Assembly (NCBI RefSeq): GCF_000011805.1
Contig: NC_006841.2
Direction: 5' to 3' (one strand)
Length of the DNA stretch: 32,000 nucleotides
Origin: Aliivibrio fischeri ES114
GTDB lineage: Bacteria; Pseudomonadota; Gammaproteobacteria; Enterobacterales; Vibrionaceae
A program made the position numbers and the translations under genes. Every line of letters begins with the position of its first letter. Within the stretch, counting starts at the first letter, position 1. Positions 1-23,074 of this stretch are shown here, in pieces. The notes beneath the pieces are model-generated. The model had not been told where the DNA came from. It made no database searches and saw nothing but the letters and a program-made list of their open reading frames with translations.

Positions 1-962
1 TTAATAAAATAACGATATTGTGCTGACTCACCCCACGCATACTTTCCATCAGGGCTGATTGAGCGACTTTTTAATTCATATTGTAATGAATGCTCTCTAG
101 TGATAACTAAATAACCTTGTTCTTTTTTCTGCTCTTGTAATTCTTTTGGGTAGATGCTTACACCATACAAACGCTTATCACTCTTCTCATCATAGACACC
201 AACACCAAAATCAGAGACCACATACCTCTTCCCACCGTATATCACCCCCACTTCTGAAAAATGGAAGTCATCGTTCATTTGGGTAGTTTTTCCTGTGGTA
301 ATTTCGTATTTCCAATATTTGGCTCTGTCTTCAAAATACAAATAACTGCTGTCTTCCGCCCAGAGGAACTGAGAATGGCCCCTATCAGCACCCAAAACTA
401 TCGACTCTTGGGTTTCTAAATCAAAAATAACTTTTTCAACGTTATTACTCCAAGCTAAGTAGCGATTATTAGGTGACCGACGCATCATTTTAACCGTTAC
501 CGCTCTGTTATGTGCCCTTGGCGGAACAACATCTAAAAAATCAGTCACTAATCGTAAATCGGTGCCATCTGTTTTTATGCTCCAAATTTTGTCTCTCGCT
601 TCATAAATCGCTTTCTCATCTGATGAGGCATTAGTAAATTCACCATTGTCCCATCTAAAATCCACTCTCGGTAAGTCGTATGAATCCGTATTTGATAAAT
701 CTTCTCTTGGCCACTCTTTGGCGCTGTTCACCACAAAGCAGGGCTTCATTATTCCCGGTATAGTGCCATTGGCTTCTTTCATTAAGATGTAGTTATCTTT
801 AGTGACATAAACTCGGTTATCATCCCACTCTTGCTTGTTAAGCAATTCGACGTCAGTTTTGGGTGGTTCAACTGCTGTACTTAACGTTGAGGGTTCGTCT
901 TGGTTGCATCCGTTTAGGAAAATAAGCGCAGCTAATGCTGTCCATAGGTATTTTGAATTCAT
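1..962 (-). CDS. PD40/TolB-like beta-propeller lipoprotein, paralog of 5894..6985 (partial; 3' end lies beyond window start)
   Basis: Absent from the supplied ORF track because it has no stop inside the window. My manual reverse-strand translation from ATG 962..960 gives MNSKYLWTALAALIFLNGCNQDEPSTLSTAVEPP... and stays open to base 1 (320 codons). Lipobox L-N-G-C at Cys19. The blocks AKEWPREDL, SYDLPR, KIWSIKTDGTDLRLVTD, RSPNNRYLAW, WAEDSSYLYFE and SISPDGKYAWG align with the 363-aa lipoprotein at 5894..6985. The SPxxRY / SPDGKY blocks resemble PD40 propeller blades. AGGGA lies 5 nt upstream of the ATG. Confidence 0.8.
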   Translation of the reverse strand, partial: MNSKYLWTALAALIFLNGCNQDEPSTLSTAVEPPKTDVELLNKQEWDDNRVYVTKDNYILMKEANGTIPGIMKPCFVVNSAKEWPREDLSNTDSYDLPRVDFRWDNGEFTNASSDEKAIYEARDKIWSIKTDGTDLRLVTDFLDVVPPRAHNRAVTVKMMRRSPNNRYLAWSNNVEKVIFDLETQESIVLGADRGHSQFLWAEDSSYLYFEDRAKYWKYEITTGKTTQMNDDFHFSEVGVIYGGKRYVVSDFGVGVYDEKSDKRLYGVSIYPKELQEQKKEQGYLVITREHSLQYELKSRSISPDGKYAWGESAQYRYFI

Positions 963-1052
963 GGTATCCCTACACTAATTCACTGATTGCAATGTCTTGG
1001 TATAGAATGCTGGATTTATTAACCCAGCTCATTTAACAATAAGAACCAGTTT

Positions 1053-4000
1053 TTATTCAGGCGCAGATCGAGTTTCAGTTTTATCTTTTATCCAACCTTT
1101 CAACCATTTTTTCTGTTCTTCTTTACCTTTTTTCTGCAAAGATTCCCATTTTGTTTGAGCCGATATATTGACCTTAGCTAATTTATTTCCTACTTGAATC
1201 CAAGGTAAATTCCCCTCATAAAAACTCTTACTTTCTGGCAATGTTATCGCTAATGGAGGACCTGATAAATATTTGCTTTCAACCTTATCAATACCTTCTT
1301 GATATAAGCCAAAAAGACGTAATTCAGAAGAATAAATTTCATCAGTGTCGTCATCGAGTATTGGTCCAAACGGTCTTAGTCCTTTTACCTTTTTACCAGT
1401 TGGGGATATATAGTCTAAATCGAATTTCATGATATAAACTTTTCTAGTTCGTGTCCCTACATGCAGCATTGATTGTGGCGCACCTTTGACTCTTTCAAGC
1501 ACTTGAGAAGCAAAATTTACAAAGGATTGCTTCTCTTCAGTTTGAGCATCAAATTCAACGTAATTAGCGTCTATATTTTTATAGGTATTGCCTTTCGAAT
1601 ATTTCTCTATATTTTCAAGATCATAATTAATGTCCATTACATGAAAAACAGAACTAAAGTAACTTGGCCCTTTTCCCTTTGAATTCGCTTTTATAAGCAC
1701 AGAATCTTGCTCTTCAATACTTAACTTTAGCTGCATAGCGATTTTATCAAGATTGAAACCAATACTCTTATAATCTTCACGATTATCTTTATCTGCTAAT
1801 AAGGCCACATAAATCGATGCTGATTGTTCTTTACCCCAATTAAATTGTTGCGAATTTATTGGTTTTTGCTTATCAAACCACTCAAATTTATTTCCTATAT
1901 TTAGTGCAGCAAGCGGGGTGACATGCCCTTCTATATATGGCTTTTTACCAGCACCTTTACTACTTTCATTCGCTTTAACAAAGCTTTCAACGAGCAAATC
2001 AGCTTCATTAATTACCGCACTTTGATTACCTAATCCATCAAAGAGATATAACGGTTTAGTTGATGTATCAACACTCCCATCACTATGACATTGAAGCCCA
2101 TAGGTATTATTATCATCAATGCCATAATGAATATTGCTCATATCGTAAAGCACACCACCAACATCCAGTTTTTCTATCGAAACTTTATGCTGATTCAGCT
2201 TAAAGAAATACGACAGAGCTTTGTATTTACCATCTTGTTTCCACGTATCAAAATTTTCATACCAATAACCAGAAAACAAAGGTTTAAGACCGGGGATTTC
2301 ATACTCACCGAACCAATAGGTTGGTTCAAATTCAACAGCAGTTAACGTTTGTTTTTCGTCTTTATCCGCTGCATAGTCATCGCCTAATTGCTGTCTGTAG
2401 TATGACGTCAATTCTTTATCTGATGGCCCGCACACGGTTAAATCAGACACCTCTTTTGCTGAAAACAAAACTTGATATTGAGGGCCATTAACATCAAGCC
2501 AACCGCGATCACAACCATAACTTAATGTTGCTTTAAAGAATTTCTTCGCATCTTCTGAAGCATTTTTAGTTAATACGACTTGTAATTTGACACGAGTAAA
2601 TGGTGTGATACGGTTCGTTTTACCTTCTTCTTTCCACTTTGAATAAGGTATCCATGATTTATCATCATCTCGATCGTTAAGCACCAATAAACGACTAAAG
2701 CCAATATCGTCTGATTTTAAGTCTTGGGCGGTATTGTCAAATAACTTAGCAAAGTCCACAAAACCATTCTCTTTATCATCCATATACAAACTGGTTTGCA
2801 CAGGGAATCCAGTATTAAACGTACCTTGAATTTTAGCTCGTTTAACTAAATGTTTCGTTGCTTCATCCAACGTTGCTTTCTTATTCTTATTGGCATATTC
2901 CACAAAGAAAGAGCGTGCTTGCGATGCACCAGTTTTATCATCTCTCACTCGGTTCAGCCAATTCTGAGCCATGGTATTGTAAGACGTCAGAGGGGCTTCC
3001 CAATTATCATTAAGAATATAAGTTTCTATGTAGTCTTGAACTCGATCGCTTATGAGTTCTTTTTTATAATCACTATTTGAGCTACTCCCTAGCGATATTC
3101 TGGCAAGCAATTCAATTAAACCATTTAACGCCAAAGCTCGAAGTAAGAAGCGTTTTTGTAATTCTTCTGATGTTTTATTCGCCTTTAGAAACGCTTCTAC
3201 CTCTTCTTTTTTTGTTAACTGCTGTTCAATTTTTACCTTAAACCCACGATACTGTTGCAATACTTCAATGTGAATTTTACCTAACTGGTTTAGCTCATTA
3301 ACGTTCTTATATTTGGCTTTAAAATCCTTATAAGCCCCTTCTGTTAATATTGAATCTAAAAAGCTTAACCCACTGTCTGCAATAGTAGCACCCTCTTTAA
3401 TTAACATAACCCCAGCCGCGACAGGGGCGATAGGGGTTAACATTGCCACCCCCATCAAAGAGTTAAATACTGCTGACACTTGCTCTTTTTGATTATTATC
3501 TAACCCAACATCAATCGCCTGTTTTGCTTGACGAACTTTCTCTAAGTCAATCATACCGGTTCGGCTAGGAGGCAAAGCTAATGAGTAGGTTGGAGGCAAT
3601 AGGCTTATTTCAACACGTCTATCTTCCGCTAACGCTGAATCGTCCCCTGTTTCACTCATATCGACTTTAGCGTTGCCTGCACTTATTGGTTGAGTGTTGC
3701 CATGTGACAAAGTAATAATACGCTCAGGTAATGTGTTATCTTCTTTCGCTTTATCTAAAATTGCCTGCTCAACTTGTTTCGCGCGATCCTCAGCAATCGT
3801 CTTATTCGCCTTATCACTGCCAATTCGCCCTGCGTGCCCATCGATTTGAATTCGATAATCTGGGTGTGTTTTTAGTAGTTCAGCAATTTTCTCACAAACT
3901 TTATCGATATCACTACGTAATGTCGTACCTGTATTTGGTAGCTCCGACGAATTAAATTTGAAGTTAATATGAATAATCGCACGAGAGCCTTGCGTAATAA

Positions 4001-5894
4001 TACGCGCTATTTGCTCCTTACCGTCATTATTCAAAACCTTAGTGGCATCTGAAAGCTGCTTAGCCCAGTCCGCCTCGGCTTTTACCATCACAATTTTTTG
4101 CAAATAATCAGTGGTTGCACCATCAAAGTTTTCTTGTTCTTTAGTCGATTGTTTCTCTAATTCTCCTTGTTTATCTACTAGCTGATAAAAATCATACATA
4201 CTGCCAATACTGTCTATAATAGGTAAGCCTTTAGCCAATTTTGTATAAGCACTTCCTTCAAACCAACTTGCCGCGAGATTTCGAGTACTAACGGATGTCC
4301 CATGCTCTTGAAAGTTTTCTTTCATCTCTTTTAGCGCATTCTGCATAAACGTTTTATTAGCAAAACCGTTACGCACCATTCTTCCAAAAGTTTGTGGAGC
4401 AGTTAAATTAAATCGTTGTACTCTTTCGGTAAGCTTAACTGCATCAGTAAACGCATCACGCGCCTCTTTGACCGATTGCAACCCAAATAAGAAACTCGCC
4501 CCAGCAGTAAGCGGCTCAGGTAAAACACCTTCAACAGTTAATTTACCCCAAATGTTTTTTGCCACACTGGTTGCAATTTGCTGGCTAGATAAATCACCAA
4601 ATACACCAATGCCTTTTGTCGCAAAACCTTGAGTATATGATTGCGCTGTCTTTTGCACTGCGGATGCAACACCAAGCGTGGCGACACCAGTGCCTTTCAA
4701 CGCCACTGTATTTCCTTGCTGTGCCATAAAATCAGAATAGCTAGGTAGTGCCGTTGGATATTGATAAATTAGACACTCTTCAAGAGAGATCAAATCACCG
4801 CATACCATCGCCAACTTACCAAAACCGCTTATCGGTTTAAAAGTGACTTTTTCATGCAGTTCATAAATATAAACATCTTGAGTAAAATTTGTTCCAGAAC
4901 GAGTATCATTCGCTTTAAACTTTAACTGACCTTGCTTTACTGAATCAGGAAAAATAGGTTCTATTCCTTCTTCTAATATTTCTTTTTGTTTATCTAAATA
5001 GTCTTTTACCCAGAAACGTGTTCGCAGTAAAAAATAACCATCATCAATTAATGTAGAATCAAAATTAAACACTACGCTCGGTAGTGTAGCTTTAGCTTCA
5101 TCTGTTTTTTCTTGGTTAGGGTTAGGCTTAGTGATAAAACTCGTAGCCAAGACATCCTCAGCTTCACCTGAAGCATCTTGTTTTGATTTCACTTGAATAA
5201 GAGAGACCTCTGCCCCCACATACAAATCACTGCTGAACACCACCCCAACTGAGTGAAAAGCAGGGGTAATAATGCCTTGAATCTCAGTAACTTTGCTTTT
5301 TTTTATACTTTCATACCAATCATTGTAATCACTTTGTTCATCTGTCAGCGGTTTATCAGACTCTTTTTTATAAGGTTCAGCTAACTGACTAACTTTTATT
5401 TTACTGATGGCAAATTCAATTAATTTGGAATATTTTTCTTCCGTTTTTAATTTATTGGAATAAATATCTTTTAGTGAATTGTTTAATGCTTTAACACTGG
5501 TGTGTGTTTCAGCCAGTTGTCCAATCACATTTAATGGCGGAAACATTAATGAATATGGTTTATCTAAATTTAATTCATTAACCGTTAATGGCTGCTTATG
5601 ACGTAAAAAAGTTTGTTTTTTTGTTATGGATTCAGGTGCTGTATTCTCATCAAAATAACCCAACTGACATAATAAACCGTCTTTATTCGAGCCCCATAAT
5701 ACTGGCTTTTCAGCATCATCAACCAAAACAGGCGTAAAAGGGATTGGGCGAACATTGCGCAAATCATCAGCCTCGGTTACATCAGATGATTGATGCCAAG
5801 TCGCTTCAATTCTCTCACCCTCTTCATCTAGATAACTTTTAAAGTAAGCCCCTAATAGATAGATTCCGTGATCATAGGTATTTAAATCAGACAT
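1053..5894 (-). CDS. Giant (1613 aa) protein of unknown function with an internal divergent OmpA/Pal/MotB-like domain; candidate secreted envelope-targeting effector
   Basis: Uninterrupted 4842-nt ORF. ATG at 5894 is preceded by AAGGAGG (complement of 5902..5908) at 7-nt spacing. It overlaps the upstream lipoprotein stop by 1 nt (TAATG). The N-terminus MSDLNTYDHGIYLLGAYFKSY is not a signal peptide. OmpA_C-like block at aa 636-766. One strong hydrophobic helix at aa 808-832. I recognise no catalytic motif in the remaining ~1480 aa (no GxSxG, HExxH or HxKxxxxD). Confidence 0.9.
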   Translation of the reverse strand: MSDLNTYDHGIYLLGAYFKSYLDEEGERIEATWHQSSDVTEADDLRNVRPIPFTPVLVDDAEKPVLWGSNKDGLLCQLGYFDENTAPESITKKQTFLRHKQPLTVNELNLDKPYSLMFPPLNVIGQLAETHTSVKALNNSLKDIYSNKLKTEEKYSKLIEFAISKIKVSQLAEPYKKESDKPLTDEQSDYNDWYESIKKSKVTEIQGIITPAFHSVGVVFSSDLYVGAEVSLIQVKSKQDASGEAEDVLATSFITKPNPNQEKTDEAKATLPSVVFNFDSTLIDDGYFLLRTRFWVKDYLDKQKEILEEGIEPIFPDSVKQGQLKFKANDTRSGTNFTQDVYIYELHEKVTFKPISGFGKLAMVCGDLISLEECLIYQYPTALPSYSDFMAQQGNTVALKGTGVATLGVASAVQKTAQSYTQGFATKGIGVFGDLSSQQIATSVAKNIWGKLTVEGVLPEPLTAGASFLFGLQSVKEARDAFTDAVKLTERVQRFNLTAPQTFGRMVRNGFANKTFMQNALKEMKENFQEHGTSVSTRNLAASWFEGSAYTKLAKGLPIIDSIGSMYDFYQLVDKQGELEKQSTKEQENFDGATTDYLQKIVMVKAEADWAKQLSDATKVLNNDGKEQIARIITQGSRAIIHINFKFNSSELPNTGTTLRSDIDKVCEKIAELLKTHPDYRIQIDGHAGRIGSDKANKTIAEDRAKQVEQAILDKAKEDNTLPERIITLSHGNTQPISAGNAKVDMSETGDDSALAEDRRVEISLLPPTYSLALPPSRTGMIDLEKVRQAKQAIDVGLDNNQKEQVSAVFNSLMGVAMLTPIAPVAAGVMLIKEGATIADSGLSFLDSILTEGAYKDFKAKYKNVNELNQLGKIHIEVLQQYRGFKVKIEQQLTKKEEVEAFLKANKTSEELQKRFLLRALALNGLIELLARISLGSSSNSDYKKELISDRVQDYIETYILNDNWEAPLTSYNTMAQNWLNRVRDDKTGASQARSFFVEYANKNKKATLDEATKHLVKRAKIQGTFNTGFPVQTSLYMDDKENGFVDFAKLFDNTAQDLKSDDIGFSRLLVLNDRDDDKSWIPYSKWKEEGKTNRITPFTRVKLQVVLTKNASEDAKKFFKATLSYGCDRGWLDVNGPQYQVLFSAKEVSDLTVCGPSDKELTSYYRQQLGDDYAADKDEKQTLTAVEFEPTYWFGEYEIPGLKPLFSGYWYENFDTWKQDGKYKALSYFFKLNQHKVSIEKLDVGGVLYDMSNIHYGIDDNNTYGLQCHSDGSVDTSTKPLYLFDGLGNQSAVINEADLLVESFVKANESSKGAGKKPYIEGHVTPLAALNIGNKFEWFDKQKPINSQQFNWGKEQSASIYVALLADKDNREDYKSIGFNLDKIAMQLKLSIEEQDSVLIKANSKGKGPSYFSSVFHVMDINYDLENIEKYSKGNTYKNIDANYVEFDAQTEEKQSFVNFASQVLERVKGAPQSMLHVGTRTRKVYIMKFDLDYISPTGKKVKGLRPFGPILDDDTDEIYSSELRLFGLYQEGIDKVESKYLSGPPLAITLPESKSFYEGNLPWIQVGNKLAKVNISAQTKWESLQKKGKEEQKKWLKGWIKDKTETRSAPE
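3399..3473 (-). other. Predicted transmembrane/membrane-inserting helix (aa 808-832) of the 1613-aa protein
   Basis: AVFNSLMGVAMLTPIAPVAAGVMLI is a 25-residue, almost uncharged hydrophobic stretch about 40 aa after the OmpA-like domain. Two weaker Gly/Ala-rich amphipathic stretches lie upstream: aa 401-413 GTGVATLGVASAV and aa 461-474 PLTAGASFLFGLQS. Judged by eye; no TM predictor was run. Confidence 0.5.
3597..3989 (-). other. OmpA_C/Pal/MotB-like (peptidoglycan-associated) domain, aa 636-766 of the 1613-aa protein
   Basis: GSRAIIHINFKFNSSELPNTGTTLRSDIDKVCEKIAELLKTHPDYRIQIDGHAGRIGSDKANKTIAEDRAKQVEQAIL...RIITLSHGNTQPI...AEDRRVEISLL follows the canonical pattern F-F-S-x-L ... i-x-I-x-GHTD-x-x-G-x-x-x-x-N-x-x-LS-x-x-RA-x-x-V ... 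G-x-G-x-x-x-P ... NRRVEI. Divergences: GHTD is GHAG here (the Asp is lost) and LSxxRA is IAEDRA (the Arg is kept). Confidence 0.75.
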
Positions 5895-6985
5895 TATTTA
5901 TCCTCCTTAAACCATAAACCATTGTTTGCTAATCCATTATAAAGGATCCCTTCTCCTGACATGGCACCATGTGAAAAAGCACGCCATGACCATACTTTAT
6001 CCTCTACACGATCAACGATAGTAACGTAAGTCATTTTGCTTAATGCACTATAATGGGCGTCTTTACCTAAAATTTGAGCAGGAACAAAGCCATCAACCAT
6101 TTGTTTCATTGTTTGCTCTTTGGTATCAAACATCCAGCCATAATCTTGATTTGATCCCCATGCAAACCTTCCTGTTGGACTAATAGACTTCACATTAAAA
6201 ATTCTTTCTTTATCACTTAATGAGCGATCTGAACTCAAAACAAATAAACGCTCATTTGTCTTTAAGTTATAACCCACAACTGCGGCATCAGTCACTTTGA
6301 TAATTTTATCTTCAGTTAACACTGCTTCAGTACGAATTTTATAATCAATCTCACTAATTTCACCAGTCTCTGAATCCCAACGCGAATAGCGATTACGATA
6401 TCTCTCATGATACAAATAGCGACTGTCCTCAGACCAAAGCATATCAAGTGGAGAGGTAGTCTTCTGTACAACTGTCACTTTACCTGTTTTTAAATCATAC
6501 ACACTTTTATGACCACCAGAGCCAGCCCAAGCGACGTAACGATTATTTGGCGAACGAGTTAAATTCCGCACCGCCGTTAAATCTATGGTTGCATCAGTCA
6601 CCAAGCGTAAATCTGTTCCGTCGGTTTTCATGCTCCAAATTTTAAGCCCGCTCTCATATTCATCTTTTGAGCTTGAGTTAGCCCACGCAAATTGAAAGCG
6701 CGGTAAATCGTATGAGCTAGCGTCATTAAGATCTTCTTTTGGCCACTCTTTGGCTTTTTCAACAAAGTAACGTGGAAAATCTTGGTACATTACTTTTAAT
6801 TCTTTTTTTCGCCCAAAAGCCGCATGTTCACTGCTTTCCATAATGTAATAATTATGCACGCCGACATAGGTACGATCTGGATGCTGTTCAACCTTTAATT
6901 GAGCCGCTTCTGCTGCCACACTTTCAGGGTCATTGCACCCCATTAGAGTGATGCTAAATAGTGCGAGTAATAGTATTTTTTTCAT
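5894..6985 (-). CDS. PD40/TolB-like beta-propeller lipoprotein (363 aa); candidate immunity/partner protein
   Basis: Signal peptide plus lipobox MKKILLLALFSITLMGC|NDPE (Cys17, +2 Asn, so probably outer-membrane sorted). Repeated blade-like blocks: IWSMKTDGTDLRLVTD, RSPNNRYVAWAG, WSEDSRYLYHE, SISPTGRFAWGS. The start is 4 nt after the upstream stop. Its stop overlaps the downstream ATG by 1 nt. Confidence 0.8.
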   Translation of the reverse strand: MKKILLLALFSITLMGCNDPESVAAEAAQLKVEQHPDRTYVGVHNYYIMESSEHAAFGRKKELKVMYQDFPRYFVEKAKEWPKEDLNDASSYDLPRFQFAWANSSSKDEYESGLKIWSMKTDGTDLRLVTDATIDLTAVRNLTRSPNNRYVAWAGSGGHKSVYDLKTGKVTVVQKTTSPLDMLWSEDSRYLYHERYRNRYSRWDSETGEISEIDYKIRTEAVLTEDKIIKVTDAAVVGYNLKTNERLFVLSSDRSLSDKERIFNVKSISPTGRFAWGSNQDYGWMFDTKEQTMKQMVDGFVPAQILGKDAHYSALSKMTYVTIVDRVEDKVWSWRAFSHGAMSGEGILYNGLANNGLWFKEDK

Positions 6986-6989
6986 TGTT

Positions 6990-8765
6990 CTAGCCTATTA
7001 ATTCTGAAACTTTAATTTTTGTTTTCAAAACGGATAATTCGTATTCTGTTGTCCCTAAATCAGCACTTGCGCCGCGAAGAATATCAACCTCTTCAACTTC
7101 TTTTGGCCAACCAGAAAATGGGAGATTTAAGAAACCTTCATCGTCAACTTTTGCTTGCCTGAAATAAACTTTCTGTGACCATTCTTGGTCTTCATTTCTT
7201 AACATTATGAAATCATCAGGTTGATCTGTTGTGCTGCAAATTCGGTAACGTAATGTAATTTGATTTTTTGGTGGCATCACCGTCATTGCTGCAATGTTGC
7301 TATCACTTTGCTTATTGATTAATTCTGAACCAAAAACTGAATTATCAACTATAGGTAACTTGTAAATACTATCGCCTTCAAATGTTTGCTGTTTGCTATA
7401 AACAGACATTTCATCAGTGGATACCGCGACATTAATATAATCAGCCTCTAGCGCGTTGATGTCATTTTCATTCAATGATCTTTGGCTATAATAGACATAA
7501 CAATCAGTTTGCTGTTGGCCTAATATTTTATAAGGCAACCAAATATGAGGCATGGGATGACTTATTCGTTTCGTATTATTTGAGCCATCATCTTTTGTTG
7601 GGCTTTCGTGTGTCGCTAGACATATTTCATCGTGATCAAAATCTACAAATTTTAATGTGACCTCTTCTTCTCCTAAATCAAATACTCTTGCTTGTTCACA
7701 TAGATCGAGTTCACCAGAAAAGACTTTTTTTCCTTTTTGATACAATTCAAATTTTTCAAAAGAGACATTAGATTCTGGCAGAAACTCCGATCCTGTAATA
7801 TTTACATGGTAGGTTTTTGATTGGCTTGGATTATCACCTTGATGATAATATTCACAAAAATAACCATTTTTATTAATAGCGATTTCTCGCCATACTTTAT
7901 TTTTCCAAATAACGTAAAAGAAACCAGTTTTATATAATGTGTGTTCGGTTTCTTGCCTCTTCATTGGCACCACAGGCACTAACACATTATCCCACTCTGC
8001 CATTTCTGTTTCTTTGGTTACAGGAGATAATGATTCGCTCAGTAACAGGTTTATCTCTTTGGCTGAATTCATGCTTGGTAACGTCAAGTACAGCGCTCTA
8101 TTTCTATCATCTAAATACGTAAATTCGACGAGACTCCGGTGTCCATTTTTGCTGTCTTTTTTCGGCTTTACTGTCTTTTCATTGATGTTTTTTAATTTTG
8201 AAATCGAGATTGATGCCGCATTATTAGGCCATTGCCCTGCAAACTCGATGACGATTTTATTATCACTCTTTTTTTCTGAAATAGGAGTGATGGATGAAGC
8301 GTTTGAACTTGAACGAAGTAAGGTCGGTTTTGCTTTTAAACGAGAACGAGTAACCGACGGGTTAACCACTTTATCAATACGTTTTTTTAGACCACTTCCT
8401 TGAGCTAAATTCAGAGTATCGATACTTCTATGTTGGTTCATTAACGATAATGCAGCCCACTCCCCCTGCTCAACCAATTGACGAATACGACTGACGGTTT
8501 GAAATACCCCTTGTGAATCACTAATTGCAGAGTGACGCTGTAAATTAATAGGTAACGATGCTTTTAATGAAGATAGATCAGTAAAACGATTAAGATGATT
8601 CAGTAATTCATTGGGAGTGAGAATATACGGTAAGTCTTTTTGGGTAAGTAAGCGACCGGGGATAAGTTTAAATTGGCAGAGCATCTGCATCTCCACATTC
8701 AGTGTATTGAAAGTATCTAAAAATAAATTGCCTGCTATATAAATATGAACAGAGAACTCAGTCAA
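6990..8765 (-). CDS. Hypothetical 591-aa (or ~564-aa) protein, first gene of the operon; no signal peptide, no recognised domain
   Basis: Long ORF. The track start at 8765 is a TTG codon (TTGACTGAG). In-frame ATGs at 8690 and 8684 (..GTGGAGATGCAGATG..) have GGAG 6 nt upstream of the second ATG, so the true start is probably 8684 or 8690. A Ser/Arg/Lys-rich linker (aa ~138-170) separates an N-terminal ~135-aa region from a large beta-rich-looking C-terminal part. Confidence 0.8.
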   Translation of the reverse strand: MTEFSVHIYIAGNLFLDTFNTLNVEMQMLCQFKLIPGRLLTQKDLPYILTPNELLNHLNRFTDLSSLKASLPINLQRHSAISDSQGVFQTVSRIRQLVEQGEWAALSLMNQHRSIDTLNLAQGSGLKKRIDKVVNPSVTRSRLKAKPTLLRSSSNASSITPISEKKSDNKIVIEFAGQWPNNAASISISKLKNINEKTVKPKKDSKNGHRSLVEFTYLDDRNRALYLTLPSMNSAKEINLLLSESLSPVTKETEMAEWDNVLVPVVPMKRQETEHTLYKTGFFYVIWKNKVWREIAINKNGYFCEYYHQGDNPSQSKTYHVNITGSEFLPESNVSFEKFELYQKGKKVFSGELDLCEQARVFDLGEEEVTLKFVDFDHDEICLATHESPTKDDGSNNTKRISHPMPHIWLPYKILGQQQTDCYVYYSQRSLNENDINALEADYINVAVSTDEMSVYSKQQTFEGDSIYKLPIVDNSVFGSELINKQSDSNIAAMTVMPPKNQITLRYRICSTTDQPDDFIMLRNEDQEWSQKVYFRQAKVDDEGFLNLPFSGWPKEVEEVDILRGASADLGTTEYELSVLKTKIKVSELIG

Positions 8766-8880: not shown

Positions 8881-8907
8881 ACAAAAAACGGCCCAATTAA
8901 GGACCGC
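8881..8907 (-). terminator. Rho-independent terminator of the antiporter gene; upstream boundary of the 4-gene operon
   Basis: The minus strand reads GCGGTCC-TTAATT-GGGCCG-TTTTTTGT. That is a 6-7 bp GC-rich stem (one G-U pair), a 6-nt loop and a T6 tract, about 30 nt after the stop at 8936. Confidence 0.7.
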
Positions 8908-8935
8908 TTCATTGCTGTCATCTTTAGGTAAACGT

Positions 8936-10477
8936 CTAGCCTAGCTGATTTCCAGCCACCAATTTGCTTTTATTGAACATATTCTCTGGAGTTAATTTAG
9001 CGAGTGTTACTACCAATGTAACCTGCGCTATTAACGCTAATATGAAAATAAGTGGGTTATCAAAAATGCCTGCAATTAGAAAGCTGACAAGTGCGATTCC
9101 ACCATTTAATAATGCATAAGGGAGTTGTGTCTTAAAGTGTTCAAACTGATCACATCCTGCTCCTGTTGAAGATAAGATCGTTGTTTCAGAAATTGGTGAA
9201 CAGTGATCGCCAAACAAACCACCAGAAAGTACAGCACCAATACATACAAACATCGGTGCATCAATTGTGATAGCTGTCGGAATAACCAAATGCATCATAA
9301 TCGCAAATGTTCCCCATGACGATCCCGTAGCAAATGAAATGATCGCTGCCAGTAAAAAAGATACCGCAGGCACTAACCAATATGGAAAGCCGTTTTGAGC
9401 TTGCTCTGCAATATAAGCTGCCGCACCTAACTCTTTACCAACTGAACTCAGAGTCCATGCAAGAATAAGGATGATTGCAACTTGCATCATGTTACCCATT
9501 CCTTTCATGTACACAGAAATACCATCCGATAGACTTCTTACCTTATTCATTGCCATTAAAATAATTAGTGTAAATGCGGCAAAGAAGTAAGCGGTAGACA
9601 AAGCAGAACGAAACACTGAACCAGAGACTTTTTCAAATGGGAAACCTAGAGGTGCAAGCATAAATACCAAAACAGCTCCCATCACCAATAGCGGTGCCCA
9701 TACAAACGAGGCTTTTGCATTTTTATGCGTGAATATTTCTTTTGAAATATCAGACGACGCATGAAGTTCGCCCTTACTTGCTATCGCTTCAGCTTTTGCC
9801 ATTGGGCCAAAATCCAATTTCTTTAATGCGACAAGTGGAACAATCGCTATCGCTAAAATTGCGTAGAATTGATATGGAATTGCGCCTAAAAATGCATCCC
9901 AATCTGTAATATCAGTGACATTTAATGCAGTAAATTCTTTCTGAATTAACCCCATGATATACACACCCCAACCAATGAATGGAATTAAAATAGCCACAGG
10001 TGATGAGGTTGAATCAATAATGAAGGCCAGCTTTTGACGAGAGATTTTTAATTTATCGAAAAGAGGACGAAAAACTGGACCAACAATTAATGGCGTACCT
10101 AAATCAGAGAAGAAAATGATGATCCCCCCTAGCCATGCCGAGGTTTGTGCCTGAAATTTACTTTTTACCCAAAGCGTTACTTTTTCTGCAAATGCAAGGC
10201 CACCACCCGACTTTTCCATTAGCGCAACAAACCCACCAATGAAAACCAGCAATACAATCACTCCGGCATTATAGCTATCTGTTAGTTGAGGAGAGATATA
10301 ACTTTTAACCATAACACCAAATGTTTCAAACGGGCCAAGCGTGGTAAACAAACCGTTTAGCATTGCTACTCCACTCAAAACACCCGCAAAAAGACCAACC
10401 ACCACATTACGCGTCGTTAACGAGATAATCAGCGTTATAGCAATGGGGATAAGGGAAGTAATGTCTGTCTGTTCCAT
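8936..10477 (-). CDS. Na+/H+ antiporter NhaC-family membrane transporter
   Basis: Polytopic membrane protein. The block GGIIIFFSDLGTPLIVGPVFRPLFDKLKISRQKLAFIIDSTSSPVAILIPFIGWGVY is typical of the NhaC/Na_H_antiporter family as I recall it. The ORF extends to 10522, but ATG 10477 (MEQTDITS...) has AAAGGAAC 7 nt upstream, so I prefer it. Confidence 0.7.
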   Translation of the reverse strand: MEQTDITSLIPIAITLIISLTTRNVVVGLFAGVLSGVAMLNGLFTTLGPFETFGVMVKSYISPQLTDSYNAGVIVLLVFIGGFVALMEKSGGGLAFAEKVTLWVKSKFQAQTSAWLGGIIIFFSDLGTPLIVGPVFRPLFDKLKISRQKLAFIIDSTSSPVAILIPFIGWGVYIMGLIQKEFTALNVTDITDWDAFLGAIPYQFYAILAIAIVPLVALKKLDFGPMAKAEAIASKGELHASSDISKEIFTHKNAKASFVWAPLLVMGAVLVFMLAPLGFPFEKVSGSVFRSALSTAYFFAAFTLIILMAMNKVRSLSDGISVYMKGMGNMMQVAIILILAWTLSSVGKELGAAAYIAEQAQNGFPYWLVPAVSFLLAAIISFATGSSWGTFAIMMHLVIPTAITIDAPMFVCIGAVLSGGLFGDHCSPISETTILSSTGAGCDQFEHFKTQLPYALLNGGIALVSFLIAGIFDNPLIFILALIAQVTLVVTLAKLTPENMFNKSKLVAGNQLG

Positions 10478-10809
10478 AGTAACGTTCCTTTTTATACTGC
10501 AAAAGAGTAAATACTTATTCAATTAAATTGACTATATATTTCACAATCACAAATGTATAGTTTTTTATTCACTTTTTATGAGTTTAAATTCACGCGTGTA
10601 TCGAGAGTCTCATTTTAGAAATCACAAGATATTCACCAAAAAGCACTCCAAGCAAAAAAACCATTCATAGAACATATAAACCAAGGGTCGCCGATACTTT
10701 ATTTTATAAAAGTGCTTGATTAGCAGCAATTTTAGGTTTTCACCTCTTTTCTATTAGCTACAGATATTCTTCAATCATTCATAAGCTGCTTAATTAAGAG
10801 AGCAAGGAT

Positions 10810-11280
10810 ATGCCTAGATTAATTACGTTAATGATTATCTTATGTTTAGCATTTAATAGTTATGCAAAGGAAACCATTTGGACAGATGACAATATTCATT
10901 TCAATTCTCTAATCTATGCTCAAAATTCTGATGATGCCTTCATCCAATCCGTAGTAACTTACGATTGCAAAAAAATTGAAATTTCGGTGGGATTTAATGA
11001 AGCGCCTCAATCATCTTTAACGGCAGTGATTAATAACAAAACGATCAGACTCAATAAATTTGGGGTCAATTATTATGGATATGCCGTATACAAACCAAAA
11101 AGTGAAACGGCAGAAGAATTGTTATTAGATCAATTTAGACAAGAAGCACCGATTCATTTAGTCGATGCTCTTGGAGATAGCTATTACTTCACTACTCAAT
11201 ATTACTCTCAAGCAATGAAACATAGACTCACCGCATGCTTAAAAAATAGAGATAAGTATTCACTACAAAATAATAGCTAA
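10810..11280 (+). CDS. Hypothetical secreted protein (156 aa)
   Basis: Sec-type signal peptide MPRLITLMIILCLAFNSYA|KE. AAGGA lies upstream of the ATG. No recognised domain. Confidence 0.6.
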   Translation: MPRLITLMIILCLAFNSYAKETIWTDDNIHFNSLIYAQNSDDAFIQSVVTYDCKKIEISVGFNEAPQSSLTAVINNKTIRLNKFGVNYYGYAVYKPKSETAEELLLDQFRQEAPIHLVDALGDSYYFTTQYYSQAMKHRLTACLKNRDKYSLQNNS

Positions 11281-14427: not shown

Positions 14428-14775
14428 TTATTTCGCTTGAAGTGCCTGAGCTTTAAATTGAACACCCGCCCAACCAGTTACCATAAAATTGCGAATGTTT
14501 TGATGATCATCCCCTTGTGGATTTTCTAATACATCCTGACGATAATATTGCCCAAAACACGCTAATGTTTGATCTACACTGAGTTGATTTAATAAAGCGA
14601 AAGCAAAAATCTTACATGAGCCATTATTTTGATCAGCCAAATTAACCGTATTACCATTCGCAAATTCTGTTGGTGTAAACTCATAGTGAGACTCTATCAC
14701 GGCCATGGTTTCGGTAAATTCAATCAATTCAGGCTGTGTGCTTAGTTTTTCAATAAATGCGTTTAACGTCATCAT
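14428..14775 (-). CDS. HopJ-family (type III effector HopPmaJ-like) small protein
   Basis: 115 aa. The blocks NNGSCKIFAFALLNQLS, TLACFGQYYRQDVL and GDDHQNIRNF match my recollection of the HopJ/PF08888 family. Lies 30 nt upstream of the oxidoreductase, so probably co-transcribed. Confidence 0.7.
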   Translation of the reverse strand: MMTLNAFIEKLSTQPELIEFTETMAVIESHYEFTPTEFANGNTVNLADQNNGSCKIFAFALLNQLSVDQTLACFGQYYRQDVLENPQGDDHQNIRNFMVTGWAGVQFKAQALQAK

Positions 14776-21095: not shown

Positions 21096-22274
21096 TTAAA
21101 AAACGCGCGGCAGTTCCATTTCTACACTTGAATCACCTGAATCATGAAGCAAATAATTTAGCCATTGCGTGGCTATCACTCCGTTATCTTCTGGTGAATA
21201 CAATACATCAAATGTTGGGGTAAACTGACTTAACCATGAGAGGTCTTTACTCCACTGCCACCTTGTCCATGCGTTAGGATCTAAGCTCCAATGAAACATC
21301 ATGTTATGTTGAACCATATTGACATGATTAAAACCTTGTTGATATGACGCTGTTGCTACAGTAAGCGCATTATTCCACTCGTTTTTACTCCATGCTCGAC
21401 TGTCATACCAATACTCTACAACGACACTGCTTCCGATTTCATTTGCCCAAGTTAACCCTACTAGCGCTTGATAGGCATTCTCTTCTTTTTCTAAAGTGAC
21501 AGGATAACGTGTGATACTTGGCTGCTGATAAGAAAGATACTTTGATTGATACACTGCCGAGCCATGAAACTCCCACGCGGTATCTAGCACAGTAACAACA
21601 CTGGCTCCCAATAACCCTTGTCGAACATCATCATAATAAGCAACCCATTGGTATTCTGTATCTCCCACTAACGCATAGCGTCTTATGCCAATCCCTTGCT
21701 GTTCACCTTGCTCTTCTAACTCACTTCCTTTTTGTTGCGTCCATGATGAGTCGGTATAAATTAACGACCATTCACCTTGGTCATCAAAATAAGAGACCGA
21801 AGCGACACCGGCCCCTTCCTCTACTTGTATACCAACAGGGTTTCGACGATAAGGGGTAAAAATATCCAGCGGGCGATATCCATAACCAACACCCCAATCG
21901 ACTCTTACTTTACCCAACTGTAAATCCAATGGAATATCGGCAATATCAATGCTGCTTTGCCAAAATAATTCACTGACAATCAGCTCACCTTCTGCACTTT
22001 TATCTTCTAATTGATTGCTAGACTGGTAATAAAGATCATTACCTTTAAGAGCCACCACCGCATTCCAGTTCTGATAACCGATTTGAACATCCAGTAATCC
22101 ATTAAATGACTCTTGGTGTTCATTGTCTGTCATTTGAGAAAAAACCGTCTCTCGCTGTTGAACCGTTTCGGCACTCAGCATCCAATCCCACTCGAAAGTC
22201 ATCTCAGAGGCTTGAGCGCTTAAAGAAGCCACCCAAGCACTACAATATACTAGCCGTTCTAGCCAAGATTTCAT
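21096..22274 (-). CDS. Putative outer-membrane beta-barrel protein
   Basis: Signal peptide MKSWLERLVYCSAWVASLSAQA|SE. Alternating aromatic-rich strands. C-terminus ...ELPRVF ends in Phe (OMP beta-signal). The track start is GTG at 22280 (GTGA overlap with the upstream stop). The ATG at 22274 is the alternative. Confidence 0.6.
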   Translation of the reverse strand: MKSWLERLVYCSAWVASLSAQASEMTFEWDWMLSAETVQQRETVFSQMTDNEHQESFNGLLDVQIGYQNWNAVVALKGNDLYYQSSNQLEDKSAEGELIVSELFWQSSIDIADIPLDLQLGKVRVDWGVGYGYRPLDIFTPYRRNPVGIQVEEGAGVASVSYFDDQGEWSLIYTDSSWTQQKGSELEEQGEQQGIGIRRYALVGDTEYQWVAYYDDVRQGLLGASVVTVLDTAWEFHGSAVYQSKYLSYQQPSITRYPVTLEKEENAYQALVGLTWANEIGSSVVVEYWYDSRAWSKNEWNNALTVATASYQQGFNHVNMVQHNMMFHWSLDPNAWTRWQWSKDLSWLSQFTPTFDVLYSPEDNGVIATQWLNYLLHDSGDSSVEMELPRVF

Positions 22275-22276
22275 GA

Positions 22277-23074
22277 TCACAAATCCAACTGTTTGGTGCG
22301 TGACAGATAAGCAGGGTTATAATATTTATCGGCAATCTCTGTTGGTGTAATTTCTTTATATTCAATCACCGTTTTTTGATTGGTTTGAATTTGATCGTTT
22401 AACACCATTGAAATCACTTTGGCTTCACCTTCCCTTACCCCTTTAATAAACCACGCTTCTTTGGCCATTTTTCCTGACCGCAAATACAAATCGGCTTTAA
22501 TCGGAAAACCCGTTCCTTGCTCTAACCATAAATCGATAGTGAAATAACTCGCGCCTTTTGTTGTCGCTTTTAGTTTAATCTTCTCAGTTTGAATCGCTTG
22601 ACCATCGGTTAGCTCGAACGTTGTCGATTCAATCCACTTACCTTGATAATCCTCACTCCACGTTAACGTTGAAATGTCACCCACAGAGGCTTCACCGAGT
22701 AACTTTTGCATCGGTGTAATACGAATTGGGCGGCGACTTTTCGGCATGAGTAACCAATAGTTATCCCCTAGCATCAGCATCTTTTGTCCGGCTTCCACTT
22801 GAGAATTAAACAACACCAAAGATTCTCGATCTTCTCGTGTGTATACCGTGTATTGGCGAGTTTTATCTAGCTCGTCATTTTTGTATAGCTTAACCTCAGA
22901 AACCACTTTTGCTGAACTTTCACCTAAGCGAAAATCATCGGCCTTTTTCACCAGTTGTTTCACTTGAGCCTCGGTTAGACTGCTTGTGTTATCCATACTT
23001 TGTATTGTTGCGGTTGCGGTCGATTGGAAGCCAACAAGCACGAACAGAATAAATAAGTGAGATAATTTAGACAT
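22277..23074 (-). CDS. LolA-like outer-membrane lipoprotein-sorting-protein family protein
   Basis: Signal peptide, then the blocks ESLVLFNSQVEAGQKMLMLGDNYWLLMPKSRRPIRI and LLGEASVGDI. These match what I recall of the LolA_like family commonly encoded next to FtsX-type permeases. Confidence 0.7.
   Translation of the reverse strand: MSKLSHLFILFVLVGFQSTATATIQSMDNTSSLTEAQVKQLVKKADDFRLGESSAKVVSEVKLYKNDELDKTRQYTVYTREDRESLVLFNSQVEAGQKMLMLGDNYWLLMPKSRRPIRITPMQKLLGEASVGDISTLTWSEDYQGKWIESTTFELTDGQAIQTEKIKLKATTKGASYFTIDLWLEQGTGFPIKADLYLRSGKMAKEAWFIKGVREGEAKVISMVLNDQIQTNQKTVIEYKEITPTEIADKYYNPAYLSRTKQLDL

Follow-up and report, generated by a model that had tools for sequence, protein, structure and literature searches.

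Genes and features of the locus

The stretch of DNA analysed here (the window, 32 kb) belongs to chromosome II of Aliivibrio fischeri ES114, a squid symbiont, and carries the genes VF_A0721, VF_A0720, and VF_A0719 together with another lipoprotein gene. The proteins of the three named genes are exact database matches to the three window ORFs. The minus-strand ORFs lie at 6990-8765 (591 aa when read from a TTG), 5894-6985 (363 aa), 1053-5894 (1613 aa), and 1-962 (320 codons, leaving the window), and these coordinates agree with the four genes described in an earlier note on this DNA, whose successive junctions are a gap of 4 nt, an overlap of 1 nt, and a gap of 90 nt. The features discussed below are the following:

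8885-8910, minus strand: intrinsic-terminator-like hairpin (10-bp stem with 5 G-C pairs, then a T-run)
6990-8684, minus strand: MIX-domain co-effector VF_A0721 by homology (564 aa; VP1388 homolog; exact match to WP_011263551.1 / AAW87791.1)
7440-7982, minus strand: MIX domain, aa 235-415 of the 564-aa VF_A0721 (boundaries from the supplementary table of PMC6267618)
5894-6985, minus strand: immunity lipoprotein VF_A0720 by homology (363 aa; VP1389 homolog; exact match to WP_011263550.1; signal peptide, lipobox LMGC)
1053-5894, minus strand: giant toxin VF_A0719 by homology (1613 aa; VP1390 homolog; exact match to WP_011263549.1)
4776-4799, minus strand: strictly conserved acidic motif GD[LM]xSLEE, aa 366-373 of VF_A0719 (conservation across 20 members)
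3600-3962, minus strand: OmpA_C-like peptidoglycan-binding domain, aa 645-765 of VF_A0719 (Pfam, NCBIfam, Foldseek)
3393-3479, minus strand: only strongly hydrophobic segment of VF_A0719, aa 806-834, VSAVFNSLMGVAMLTPIAPVAAGVMLIKE (Kyte-Doolittle maximum 1.97)
1-962, minus strand: second immunity-family lipoprotein paralog, lipobox LNGC, cut after codon 320 by the window edge

A Na+/H+ antiporter gene (8936-10522) lies upstream of the operon, and the hairpin at its end, which had already been taken for the antiporter terminator and is located at 8885-8910, forms the upstream operon boundary. At the other end, the operon extends beyond the four genes that had been supposed: a third lipoprotein paralog (400 aa) comes next in the 99.99%-identical strain VCW2E2 (L001), the only genome in which the DNA left of the window was viewed. 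No T6SS core gene was found in the 32-kb window, for which the earlier note had listed no vgrG, hcp, PAAR, or DUF4123 gene, and none occurs in the 10 kb around the VCW2E2 toxin gene.

The MIX-domain protein VF_A0721

The ORF of VF_A0721 can be extended to the TTG at 8765, from which the length of 591 aa had been read. Most likely, translation starts at the ATG at 8684 and yields 564 aa, the longer form being unlikely: a GGAG stands 6 nt upstream of this ATG, the homologs all measure 562-574 aa, and the alignment with the V. diabolicus protein starts at the residue that the ATG encodes. The protein had also been described as an unknown, a label now superseded because it has a MIX domain at aa 235-415. 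In fact, VF_A0721 itself (WP_011263551.1 / YP_206679.1, NC_006841.2 816990-818684) was catalogued as a MIX I effector by Dar et al. in 2018 (PMC6267618), where the entry reads MIX1, aa 235-415, Cluster 5, a cluster shared with the V. parahaemolyticus VP1388 homologs. The MIX call is based on this published table and on the central motif hRxGhhYhh, which takes the form YKTGFFYVI at aa 251-259. Identity to the T6SS1-adjacent V. diabolicus MIX protein is 40% over 565 columns.

The giant protein VF_A0719

VF_A0719 shares 43% identity with V. parahaemolyticus P0144 (1643 columns, 1296 bits), a protein that falls in the 90%-identity cluster of the T6SS1-adjacent V. diabolicus toxin, and likewise 43% with the V. 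diabolicus triad toxin. The family is collinear over its whole length. By homology, VF_A0719 would be a periplasm-acting lytic T6SS effector. Neither VF_A0719 nor VF_A0721 has a hydrophobic N-terminus or signal peptide, in line with what had been noted for the two large proteins.

An OmpA/Pal-like domain and one strong hydrophobic helix had been claimed in the giant, and both were recovered: Pfam PF00691 (OmpA) matches aa 645-747 with an E-value of 5.4e-15 (56 bits against a cutoff of 27.2), and the hydrophobic stretch at aa 806-834 is conserved in homologs. NCBIfam returned matches of the Pal/YiaD type for the domain, and Foldseek retrieved OmpA, Pal, and MotB domains with a probability of 1.0 and target TM-scores of at most 0.76. 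In the NxxLxxxRA-type motif, N697, R704, and A705 are each at least 95% conserved across 20 family members. The peptidoglycan-binding Asn/Arg motif, the fold, and the above-threshold profile match assign the domain of VF_A0719 to the OmpA_C-like/Pal type.

Among the same 20 family members, no conserved Cys, His, or Ser nucleophile was found outside the OmpA-like domain; H687 is conserved inside it and S777 just past it. D367, E372, and E373, together with E348, are at least 95% conserved in these 20 diverse members, and the GD[LM]xSLEE motif is a candidate active or interaction site. The structure models from this analysis are of low confidence (pLDDT 51 and 53). The acidic motif, the absent Cys/His/Ser nucleophile, and the retained OmpA-like residues narrow the hunt for the mechanism of this toxin family. 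VasX_N, DUF4123, PAAR, and Tle/Tae/Tme, the effector and adaptor families for which a profile check had been suggested, gave no Pfam or NCBIfam match in any of the four proteins.

The immunity-family lipoproteins

VF_A0720 is 44% identical to the V. diabolicus triad protein over its full length. The family carries a hydrophobic N-terminus and a lipobox L-x-G-C whose G-C is invariant in all 11 members, and VF_A0720 and the paralog at 1-962 are 35% identical (BLASTP, E 5e-45), so the description of the two as lipobox-bearing paralogs holds. The label "PD40/TolB-like" does not: PD40 (PF07676) matched one of 11 members at an E-value of 0.072, and TolB membership was not detected. Instead, Pfam returned weak generic beta-propeller matches (THOC3, EML, and WDR3 propellers), and the family profile found regucalcin (1.2e-5) and WD40 proteins in the PDB, which supports the prediction of a generic beta-propeller body.

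The paralog at 1-962, presumably VF_A0718, is intact in ES114 and frameshifted by one extra C in VCW2E2; it is 74.5% identical to the third paralog of that strain. Most triads (L006, L007, L009, L012-L014, L017-L019, and L021) have no lipoprotein gene after the giant, and the downstream copies are therefore optional extras. They would be additional, probably non-cognate immunity genes.

A very probable binary effector module

All three proteins align end to end, at 40-44% identity, with the T6SS1-flanking triad of V. diabolicus, V. parahaemolyticus, and V. harveyi, and the order of MIX co-effector, immunity gene, and giant is identical in all 14 distinct loci mapped (the window and L001 counted as one). 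Judged by this homology, the cluster is very probably a T6SS "binary effector module" of the VP1388-VP1389-VP1390 type. It is a copy of an already described weapon cassette and not a new system. The earlier note had called the system undescribed; the family was published under the above name by Dar, Jana, Bosis and Salomon (EMBO Rep 2022, PMC8728615), who name A. fischeri, and the MIX protein appears in PMC6267618.

In V. parahaemolyticus, VP1388 binds VP1390, both co-precipitate with VgrG1, and neither is secreted without the other; VP1390 sent to the periplasm lyses E. coli, VP1388 is non-toxic, and VP1389 alone gives immunity and binds VP1390 (PMC8728615). The large proteins are secreted by T6SS1 and kill immunity-deficient siblings (PMC8728615). 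Triads were reported in 1,375 strains, A. fischeri among them, and Aliivibrio was found to have additional copies of VP1389 and more than one operon (PMC8728615); 65% of the published operons lie near T6SS core genes, so that linkage is typical, not obligatory. The searched literature held no experiment on VF_A0719-0721, and the function of the ES114 proteins is transferred across about 43% identity. By this transfer, VF_A0721 would bind the 1613-aa toxin VF_A0719, and both would be loaded together on the VgrG spike and secreted only as a pair. In the prey periplasm, the toxin with its peptidoglycan-binding OmpA-like domain would then slow division and cause septal blebbing and lysis, while VF_A0720, exported to the periplasm of its owner, would bind and neutralise the toxin.

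The earlier note had offered two readings, the first being an orphan T6SS effector-immunity module, possibly composed of two tandem pairs. The kind of system was recognised correctly, the genes being full-length vp1388-vp1389-vp1390 homologs; the tandem pairs do not stand. Such an arrangement, with the 591-aa protein as a toxin protected by its own lipoprotein and the giant as a second toxin protected by the other, would fit the presence of a lipoprotein gene after each large gene, and VP1388 was indeed first reported as the effector and VP1389 as its immunity protein, as cited in PMC8728615. However, the later work found the smaller large protein, VP1388, non-toxic and VP1390 toxic, with the middle lipoprotein VP1389 binding the giant as the sole immunity gene (PMC8728615), and most triads do without a lipoprotein gene after the giant. 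Two pairs are thus very improbable.

The second reading, in which a self-contained Tol-Pal-like complex would maintain the envelope or defend against phages and need no secretion system, is barely credible. It would accommodate the OmpA-like domain and the beta-propeller lipoproteins, the orphan copies without a T6SS gene within 10 kb, and the published "dyads" found in genomes without a V. parahaemolyticus T6SS1-like system (PMC8728615). PADLOC also gave a weak ZorB (ZorB/MotB) match (E 1.7e-4) and a PDC-M50A match (E 0.045). However, the ZorB match is confined to the generic OmpA/MotB-like domain, which causes it, and PADLOC found no defence-system protein model beyond this shared domain. 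The ES114-type surroundings, for which a defence island had been considered, consist of ordinary metabolic and regulatory genes. The large proteins lack an export signal, their V. parahaemolyticus counterparts leave the cell through T6SS1 and kill (PMC8728615), and 8 of the 14 distinct mapped loci abut vasH, clpV, hcp, and vgrG.

T6SS linkage and the orphan copy of ES114

In these eight loci, the triad is directly followed by vasH and clpV (on the opposite strand), hcp, and vgrG, which answers in the affirmative whether the operon sits beside vgrG/hcp in some strains. They come from A. fischeri T6SS2-positive strains (two), A. sifiae, A. logei, V. diabolicus, V. harveyi, V. bivalvicida, and Vibrio sp. 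JPW-9-11-11. The closest Aliivibrio relatives (82-88% identity) stand directly beside the vasH-clpV-hcp-vgrG genes of T6SS2. ES114 lacks T6SS2, a system like the T6SS1 of V. parahaemolyticus (7 component homologs vs 16-20). The ES114 module is an orphan, the T6SS2 island that bears its closest relatives at its edge being absent from the strain, and the ES114 proteins may therefore not be secreted at all. The toxin may still be fired, for example via T6SS1 and an auxiliary VgrG, or immunity may be the main reason why the locus persists.

The empty T6SS2 island site is marked by a single 16-bp repeat, about 7.6 kb away from the triad, and the flanking tRNA-Gly is about 3.3 kb away. In ES114, both the MIX gene and the 4.8-kb toxin ORF are intact. 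dN/dS is 0.14-0.29 across all three genes and 0.16-0.24 for the toxin alone; between ES114 and Aliivibrio sp. 1S175, both of the T6SS2-negative pattern, the toxin has a value of 0.17 and the MIX gene one of 0.14 (dS 0.3-0.7). Part of the remaining interest of the locus lies here: ES114 has no T6SS2, yet the triad is intact, selectively constrained, and close to the empty island site.

One possible explanation, which we regard as real but doubtful, is that the ES114 triad is no longer a weapon and represents the leftover of the edge of a T6SS2 region that was lost or never acquired. It would be kept for the protection that VF_A0720 and the paralogs downstream give when T6SS2-positive V. fischeri fire related toxins. 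ES114 is attacked and killed by T6SS2-positive strains, and the proximity of the island repeat and of tRNA-Gly, as well as the two extra immunity paralogs after the toxin gene, would fit such an origin. So does the decay at sister orphan loci: the giant is split in A. finisterrensis (150 + 1387 aa) and reduced to a 128-aa remnant in Aliivibrio sp. S4MY1, and VCW2E2 carries a frameshift in an immunity gene. However, the toxin and MIX genes of ES114 are undamaged, and the low dN/dS relative to 1S175 would be unexpected for a useless toxin gene. Moreover, ES114 is still killed by T6SS2-positive strains, and any protection by the immunity proteins is therefore partial.

Alternatively, selection could maintain the ES114-type triad as a sub-lineage of its own that has adapted to another firing apparatus, which we consider unlikely. 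ES114-type triads are orphan and antiporter-adjacent, and the genomes in which they have been found so far, among them ES114, VCW2E2, and Aliivibrio sp. 1S175, show the T6SS2-negative pattern. VF_A0721 is overall only 53-58% identical to the MIX proteins of T6SS2-linked Aliivibrio triads; its N-terminal ~300 aa share 28-54% identity with these alleles and its toxin-proximal C-terminus 92-96%. With this diverged N-terminus, the module could dock on another spike, that of the conserved T6SS1 with an auxiliary-cluster VgrG. If true, this would be the first antibacterial cargo of the V. fischeri T6SS1 and a hidden weapon in "non-lethal" strains.

VF_A0719-0721, hitherto labelled "hypothetical / OmpA family / WD40", and their neighbours can now be annotated as a T6SS binary effector module plus an immunity-gene array. 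Competition studies of squid colonisation use ES114 as their standard "non-lethal" prey, and an intact toxin, co-effector, and immunity set beside an empty T6SS2 site matters for reading strain compatibility.

Comparison with known systems

The ES114 triad shares with V. parahaemolyticus VP1388-VP1389-VP1390 the gene order, the tight junctions, the signal peptide of the immunity protein, and the OmpA_C-like domain in the middle of the toxin. Sizes are similar (564 aa alike for the co-effector, 363 vs about 367-375 aa, and 1613 vs about 1592 aa), the MIX I domain spans aa 235-415 in ES114 vs 236-415 in V. parahaemolyticus, and the extra immunity copies fit those given for Aliivibrio in PMC8728615. 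Unlike the V. parahaemolyticus module, the ES114 copy does not adjoin a T6SS, sits in a strain from which its cognate T6SS2 is absent, is known from sequence, and, with the third paralog of VCW2E2 included, has two further immunity paralogs after the toxin gene.

Closer relatives are the T6SS2-edge triads of A. fischeri (L019, L021), A. sifiae (L012), and A. logei (L013), with the same gene order and toxins 82-88% and immunity proteins 68-85% identical. In A. logei, the same antiporter gene stands upstream as in ES114. Unlike in ES114, these triads lead directly into a 166-aa gene, which A. logei L013 lacks, and vasH, clpV, hcp, and vgrG, and no extra immunity genes follow the toxin.

A likeness to Pal/TolB is given by the OmpA-like domain and by a predicted beta-propeller partner in the periplasm to which the OmpA-domain protein would bind, and the septal blebbing reported for VP1390 resembles that of tol-pal mutants. 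Unlike Pal, the toxin has 1613 aa, only about 120 of which are OmpA-like. Furthermore, nothing points to a contact of the immunity protein with the OmpA-like domain, which ranks with the best-conserved regions of the toxin, whereas the immunity proteins vary.

The V. cholerae vasW-vasX-tsiV2 operon likewise combines an immunity gene with a MIX-class T6SS cargo effector, and this effector depends on the accessory protein of an upstream gene. There, the MIX domain resides on the toxin VasX, a pore-former. In the ES114 module, by contrast with this general picture of V. cholerae, MIX is found on the partner predicted to be non-toxic and the two large genes flank the immunity gene. Unlike classical adaptors, a partner of the VP1388 type is itself secreted.

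Gene Organization and Identity

The layout claimed in the earlier note, with four minus-strand ORFs at one end of the window, was confirmed by ORF reading:

8885-8910: terminator-like hairpin at the 3′ end of the preceding Na+/H+ antiporter gene
6990-8765, minus: ORF of 591 aa when read from TTG (VF_A0721)
5894-6985, minus: lipoprotein ORF of 363 aa (VF_A0720)
1053-5894, minus: giant ORF of 1613 aa (VF_A0719)
1-962, minus: fourth ORF, 320 codons, without a stop inside the window

The junctions are also as proposed (a 4-nt gap, a 1-nt overlap, and a 90-nt gap), and every operon ORF is intact within the window. The first gene is real, but its 591-aa TTG start had to be corrected: translation most likely begins at the ATG at 8684, giving a protein of 564 aa. 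This start is favored by a GGAG 6 nt upstream, by the alignment with the V. diabolicus counterpart, which begins there, and by the length of 562–574 aa found in homologs and by gene callers. The TTGACT hexamer beginning with the TTG at 8765 could instead be a −35 box; the site did not pass a promoter scan. Likewise, the four genes of the proposed four-gene operon are present, but the cluster runs past the window. In the VCW2E2 locus (L001), which is 99.994% identical to the window over 15.9 kb, a third lipoprotein paralog of 400 aa comes after the fourth gene.

VF_A0719, VF_A0720 (annotated as "lipoprotein, putative"), and the 564-aa VF_A0721 match WP_011263549.1, WP_011263550.1, and WP_011263551.1 exactly. 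A supplementary table of PMC6267618 lists the ES114 564-aa gene at NC_006841.2 816990-818684, minus strand, which equals window 6990-8684 plus 810,000. In a literature search with the VF_A locus tags and accessions, no paper found named them in its main text.

Relationship to the VP1388–VP1390 System

The neighborhoods of the homologs are decisive for the identity of the ES114 triad (VF_A0721, VF_A0720, and VF_A0719). Homologs of the giant protein occur throughout Aliivibrio (76–100% identity) and, over the full length, in several Vibrio species (37–43%). In V. diabolicus, a triad of 564-, 367-, and 1592-aa proteins adjoins genes for a sigma-54 activator, ClpV, Hcp, VgrG, and a DUF2169 protein. 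This neighborhood corresponds to the T6SS1 layout of V. parahaemolyticus, where the published operon list gives vp1388-1390, vp1391-1392, and then hcp1 and vgrG1. Identity to the V. diabolicus counterparts, end to end, is 40% for VF_A0721 and 44% for VF_A0720. A 90%-identity cluster of 313 sequences, mostly from V. parahaemolyticus among those read, has the V. diabolicus giant as its representative, and the giant of the window is 43% identical to one V. parahaemolyticus member over 1643 columns.

The vp1388-vp1390 operon was characterized by Dar, Jana, Bosis, and Salomon (EMBO Rep 2022, PMC8728615). In their study, VP1388 is a MIX-domain "co-effector" that is nontoxic alone. VP1390 acts as a toxin in the periplasm, where it slows division and leads to blebs at the septum and to lysis. 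The two proteins interact, co-precipitate with VgrG1, and are secreted only in each other's presence. The gene between theirs encodes VP1389, which has a signal peptide, binds VP1390, and is the sole immunity protein. Such "triads" were present in 1,375 strains, with A. fischeri named explicitly and 65% of the operons at the edges of T6SS clusters; in Aliivibrio there are several operon copies, and extra copies of VP1389 lie in or beside the operon (PMC8728615).

The ES114 cluster is thus a member of a described and experimentally characterized T6SS effector–immunity system. Given the full-length homology and the two publications (PMC8728615, PMC6267618), the locus is already known rather than new, and the system cannot be called "undescribed", as it had been: the family is published and the ES114 MIX protein is catalogued. 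The suggestion of an effector–immunity module was well founded, as the triad is homologous to vp1388-vp1390. Its variant with two tandem effector–immunity pairs is rejected, as it conflicts with the nontoxic VP1388 and the single immunity protein VP1389 (PMC8728615).

The MIX Co-Effector

The protein catalogued as WP_011263551.1 (VCW2E2) and YP_206679.1 (ES114) was assigned to the MIX I effectors by Dar et al. in 2018, with the MIX domain at aa 235–415 of VF_A0721 and in one cluster with the VP1388 homologs of V. parahaemolyticus (PMC6267618). The central MIX motif hRxGhhYhh reads YKTGFFYVI at aa 251–259. Pfam and NCBIfam gave a single sub-threshold match for the 591-aa protein (DKNYY, E 0.064), and phmmer against PDB sequences gave none for the MIX protein. 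Neither VF_A0721 nor the giant has a hydrophobic N-terminus, in line with the earlier reading that the large proteins lack signal peptides.

The Giant Toxin

The earlier description of VF_A0719 as an OmpA-like domain plus one strong hydrophobic stretch holds: Pfam places an OmpA domain at aa 645–747 (E 5e-15), and the single strongly hydrophobic segment is aa 806–834. Pfam and NCBIfam found no further family in the protein, and phmmer matches among PDB sequences were limited to OmpA, Pal, and similar domains. AlphaFold2 models of residues 1–800 and 780–1613, built on a 14-sequence alignment, were poor (mean pLDDT 53.1 and 50.8). With Foldseek, OmpA-like domains were the sole matches of the N-terminal half model; the low-pLDDT model of the C-terminal half had no match in the PDB (best E 0.23). 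A profile for the C-terminal 614 aa, built on 11 diverse members of the family, gave a best E of 1.3 against the PDB and no Pfam match.

The alternative of a self-contained envelope or phage-defense complex is rejected: the PADLOC match to ZorB is weak and confined to the OmpA-like domain, and the window holds no defense island.

The family is small, with 79 cluster representatives among 1.84 billion, and a second homolog search with the alignment profile returned the same 46 proteins and none in addition. Its members are collinear over the full length even at 13–30% identity, and the giant is therefore not a domain-swapping polymorphic toxin. Across 20 diverse members, conserved Cys, His, or Ser nucleophiles are absent outside the region of the OmpA-like domain; a Cys-His pair (C365/H99), considered as catalytic, is invariant in close relatives but not conserved across this set. 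Among the strictly conserved polar residues are the OmpA-type peptidoglycan-binding N697 and R704 and an acidic cluster of E348, D367, E372, and E373, with the motif GD[LM]xSLEE at aa 366–373. For an enzymatic toxin, the best candidate would be acid-based chemistry at this acidic motif; a nonenzymatic action through peptidoglycan binding is equally plausible.

The Immunity Lipoproteins

VF_A0720 and the fourth gene product each have an N-terminal signal peptide and an L-x-G-C lipobox, and sequence comparison bears out that they are paralogs. The downstream paralogs are 35–43% identical to VF_A0720 and 74.5% to each other. The "PD40/TolB" label was too specific, as the searches support only a generic β-propeller (weak propeller matches in Pfam/NCBIfam). 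In PADLOC, the lipoprotein had one marginal match.

VCW2E2 carries an extra C relative to window position 19 (nt 944 of the 1-962 ORF; compared region L001 14933-16160), which splits its second immunity gene into ORFs of 320 and 104 aa. ES114 reads in frame at this position, so its second immunity gene, which extends beyond the window edge, is intact at that site. VF_A0720 is most variable at aa 200–300; co-variation of this region with the variable C-terminus of the toxin was inconsistent among the five pairs compared.

Genomic Placement and the T6SS2 Island

Fifteen loci were mapped by blastp against reference proteins, and a locus was termed orphan if its toxin gene had no T6SS core gene nearer than 10 kb.

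Arrangement of the triad in the mapped loci
Triad, then directly vasH and clpV (opposite strand), hcp, vgrG: two T6SS2-positive A. fischeri strains; A. sifiae, A. logei; V. diabolicus, V. harveyi, V. bivalvicida, Vibrio sp. JPW-9-11-11
Orphan: ES114/VCW2E2, Aliivibrio sp. 1S175, Aliivibrio sp. S4MY1, A. finisterrensis; V. profundum, Vibrio sp. WXL210

The T6SS2 of V. fischeri forms a strain-specific island of 50 kb on chromosome II, arranged like T6SS1 of V. parahaemolyticus. It is absent from ES114, which keeps one copy of the 16-bp repeat that bounds the island together with tRNA-Gly (PMC6130350, PMC9972734, PMC9515649). In L001, the antiporter gene is followed by the triad, two immunity paralogs, tRNA-Gly, a chitinase-like gene in convergent orientation, the 16-bp repeat, and a patatin gene. 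Two features downstream of the operon mark the island boundary and the empty site:

L001 18109-18183: tRNA-Gly(TCC), about 2.2 kb left of the window
L001 22444-22459: exact 16-bp T6SS2 island repeat GTTTAAAAAAGCAGAA, about 6.5 kb beyond the left end

The repeat is absent within the window. By this gene order, about 7.6 kb separates the ES114 triad from the empty island site, which lies just left of window position 1. In A. logei, the antiporter gene, the triad, and T6SS2 form one uninterrupted block. In L019, from a T6SS2-positive A. fischeri strain, the triad nearest to that of ES114 (toxin 86% identical) borders T6SS2 beyond the chitinase gene, and the slot just before tRNA-Gly holds a second, divergent giant paralog with about 26% identity over the C-terminal half (L019 1-2442; in A. 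sifiae, L012 3-3725). Thus, two different triads flank the chitinase-like gene in T6SS2-positive Aliivibrio.

As the earlier note had it, vgrG and hcp are missing from the window, and T6SS genes are absent across its length. Homologs of V. parahaemolyticus T6SS1 components number 7 in ES114 versus 16–20 in T6SS2-positive strains (PMC6267618). The V. fischeri T6SS1 is conserved, has no hcp and vgrG of its own, and in ES114 influences the survival of zebrafish embryos (PMC12077117); two auxiliary clusters are retained in ES114, according to published V. fischeri T6SS work. The ES114 triad may be fired by another apparatus, or immunity may be the main function for which the locus is retained.

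Selection and Turnover

Comparison of ES114 with Aliivibrio sp. 1S175, which shares the T6SS2-negative pattern, indicates purifying selection on the triad: at dS 0.3–0.7, the toxin gene has a dN/dS of 0.17, the MIX gene 0.14, and the immunity gene 0.29. Along the toxin gene, dS per 200 codons lies between 0.03 and 1.17, varying with the partner compared; this range and the variable blocks in the immunity protein and the toxin (aa 1–400 and about 1400–1613) point to recombination mosaics. The sister orphan loci bear signs of decay or recombination turnover. Besides the split immunity gene of VCW2E2, the A. finisterrensis giant is broken into 150 and 1387 aa (L011 10001-14805), and Aliivibrio sp. 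S4MY1 has a 128-aa remnant of the giant N-terminus and a duplicated immunity gene between the immunity and toxin genes (L010 10001-11486).

Other Genes in the Window

Elsewhere in the window the genes are of ordinary kinds, among them those for LysR regulators, a choloylglycine-hydrolase-family protein, an oxidoreductase, a HopJ protein, an MFS transporter, an α-amylase, a LytTR two-component pair, and a MacB/LolA-like ABC system. The HopJ gene (14428-14775, minus, 115 aa) has a strong match (E 5e-52) to the HopJ type III effector family and lies between the oxidoreductase and MFS transporter genes, with no secretion system nearby. Three ORFs have no Pfam match:

10810-11280, plus: 156 aa, signal-peptide-like N-terminus
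21096-22280, minus: 394 aa
25016-25696, minus: 226 aa

The latter two are embedded in the MacB/FtsX, ABC ATPase, and LolA-like cluster (22277-25009).

Proposed Mechanism and Comparison with Known Systems

[quoted passage not shown] There, VF_A0719 would bind peptidoglycan via its OmpA-like domain and cause lysis, preferentially at the septum. VF_A0720, an anchored lipoprotein of the periplasm, would bind the toxin and block it. The downstream paralogs would serve as extra immunity genes, probably against non-kin alleles. The remaining interest lies in an orphan module in a T6SS2-negative model strain and in the mechanism of the toxin.

In the part of a 2025 review that deals with VP1388 (PMC12826047), the OmpA_C domain is placed in this protein. 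This contradicts both PMC8728615 and the sequences considered here, in which the OmpA-like domain belongs to the giant (VP1390/VF_A0719) and not to the MIX protein.

A further difference concerns the MIX protein itself. VF_A0721 is 84–96% identical to MIX proteins of orphan loci versus 53–58% for T6SS2-linked ones, and the divergence from the latter is concentrated in the N-terminal ~300 aa. When window 6990-8684 is compared with the two T6SS2-positive A. fischeri strains (L019 7205-8899 and L021 7205-8899), the MIX proteins are 58% identical (28–54% in the first 300 aa, 92–96% in the last 100 aa), while the toxins are 84–86% identical. The opposite pattern, in which the N-terminus is conserved and the C-terminus diverges, is reported for V. 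parahaemolyticus (PMC10734457).
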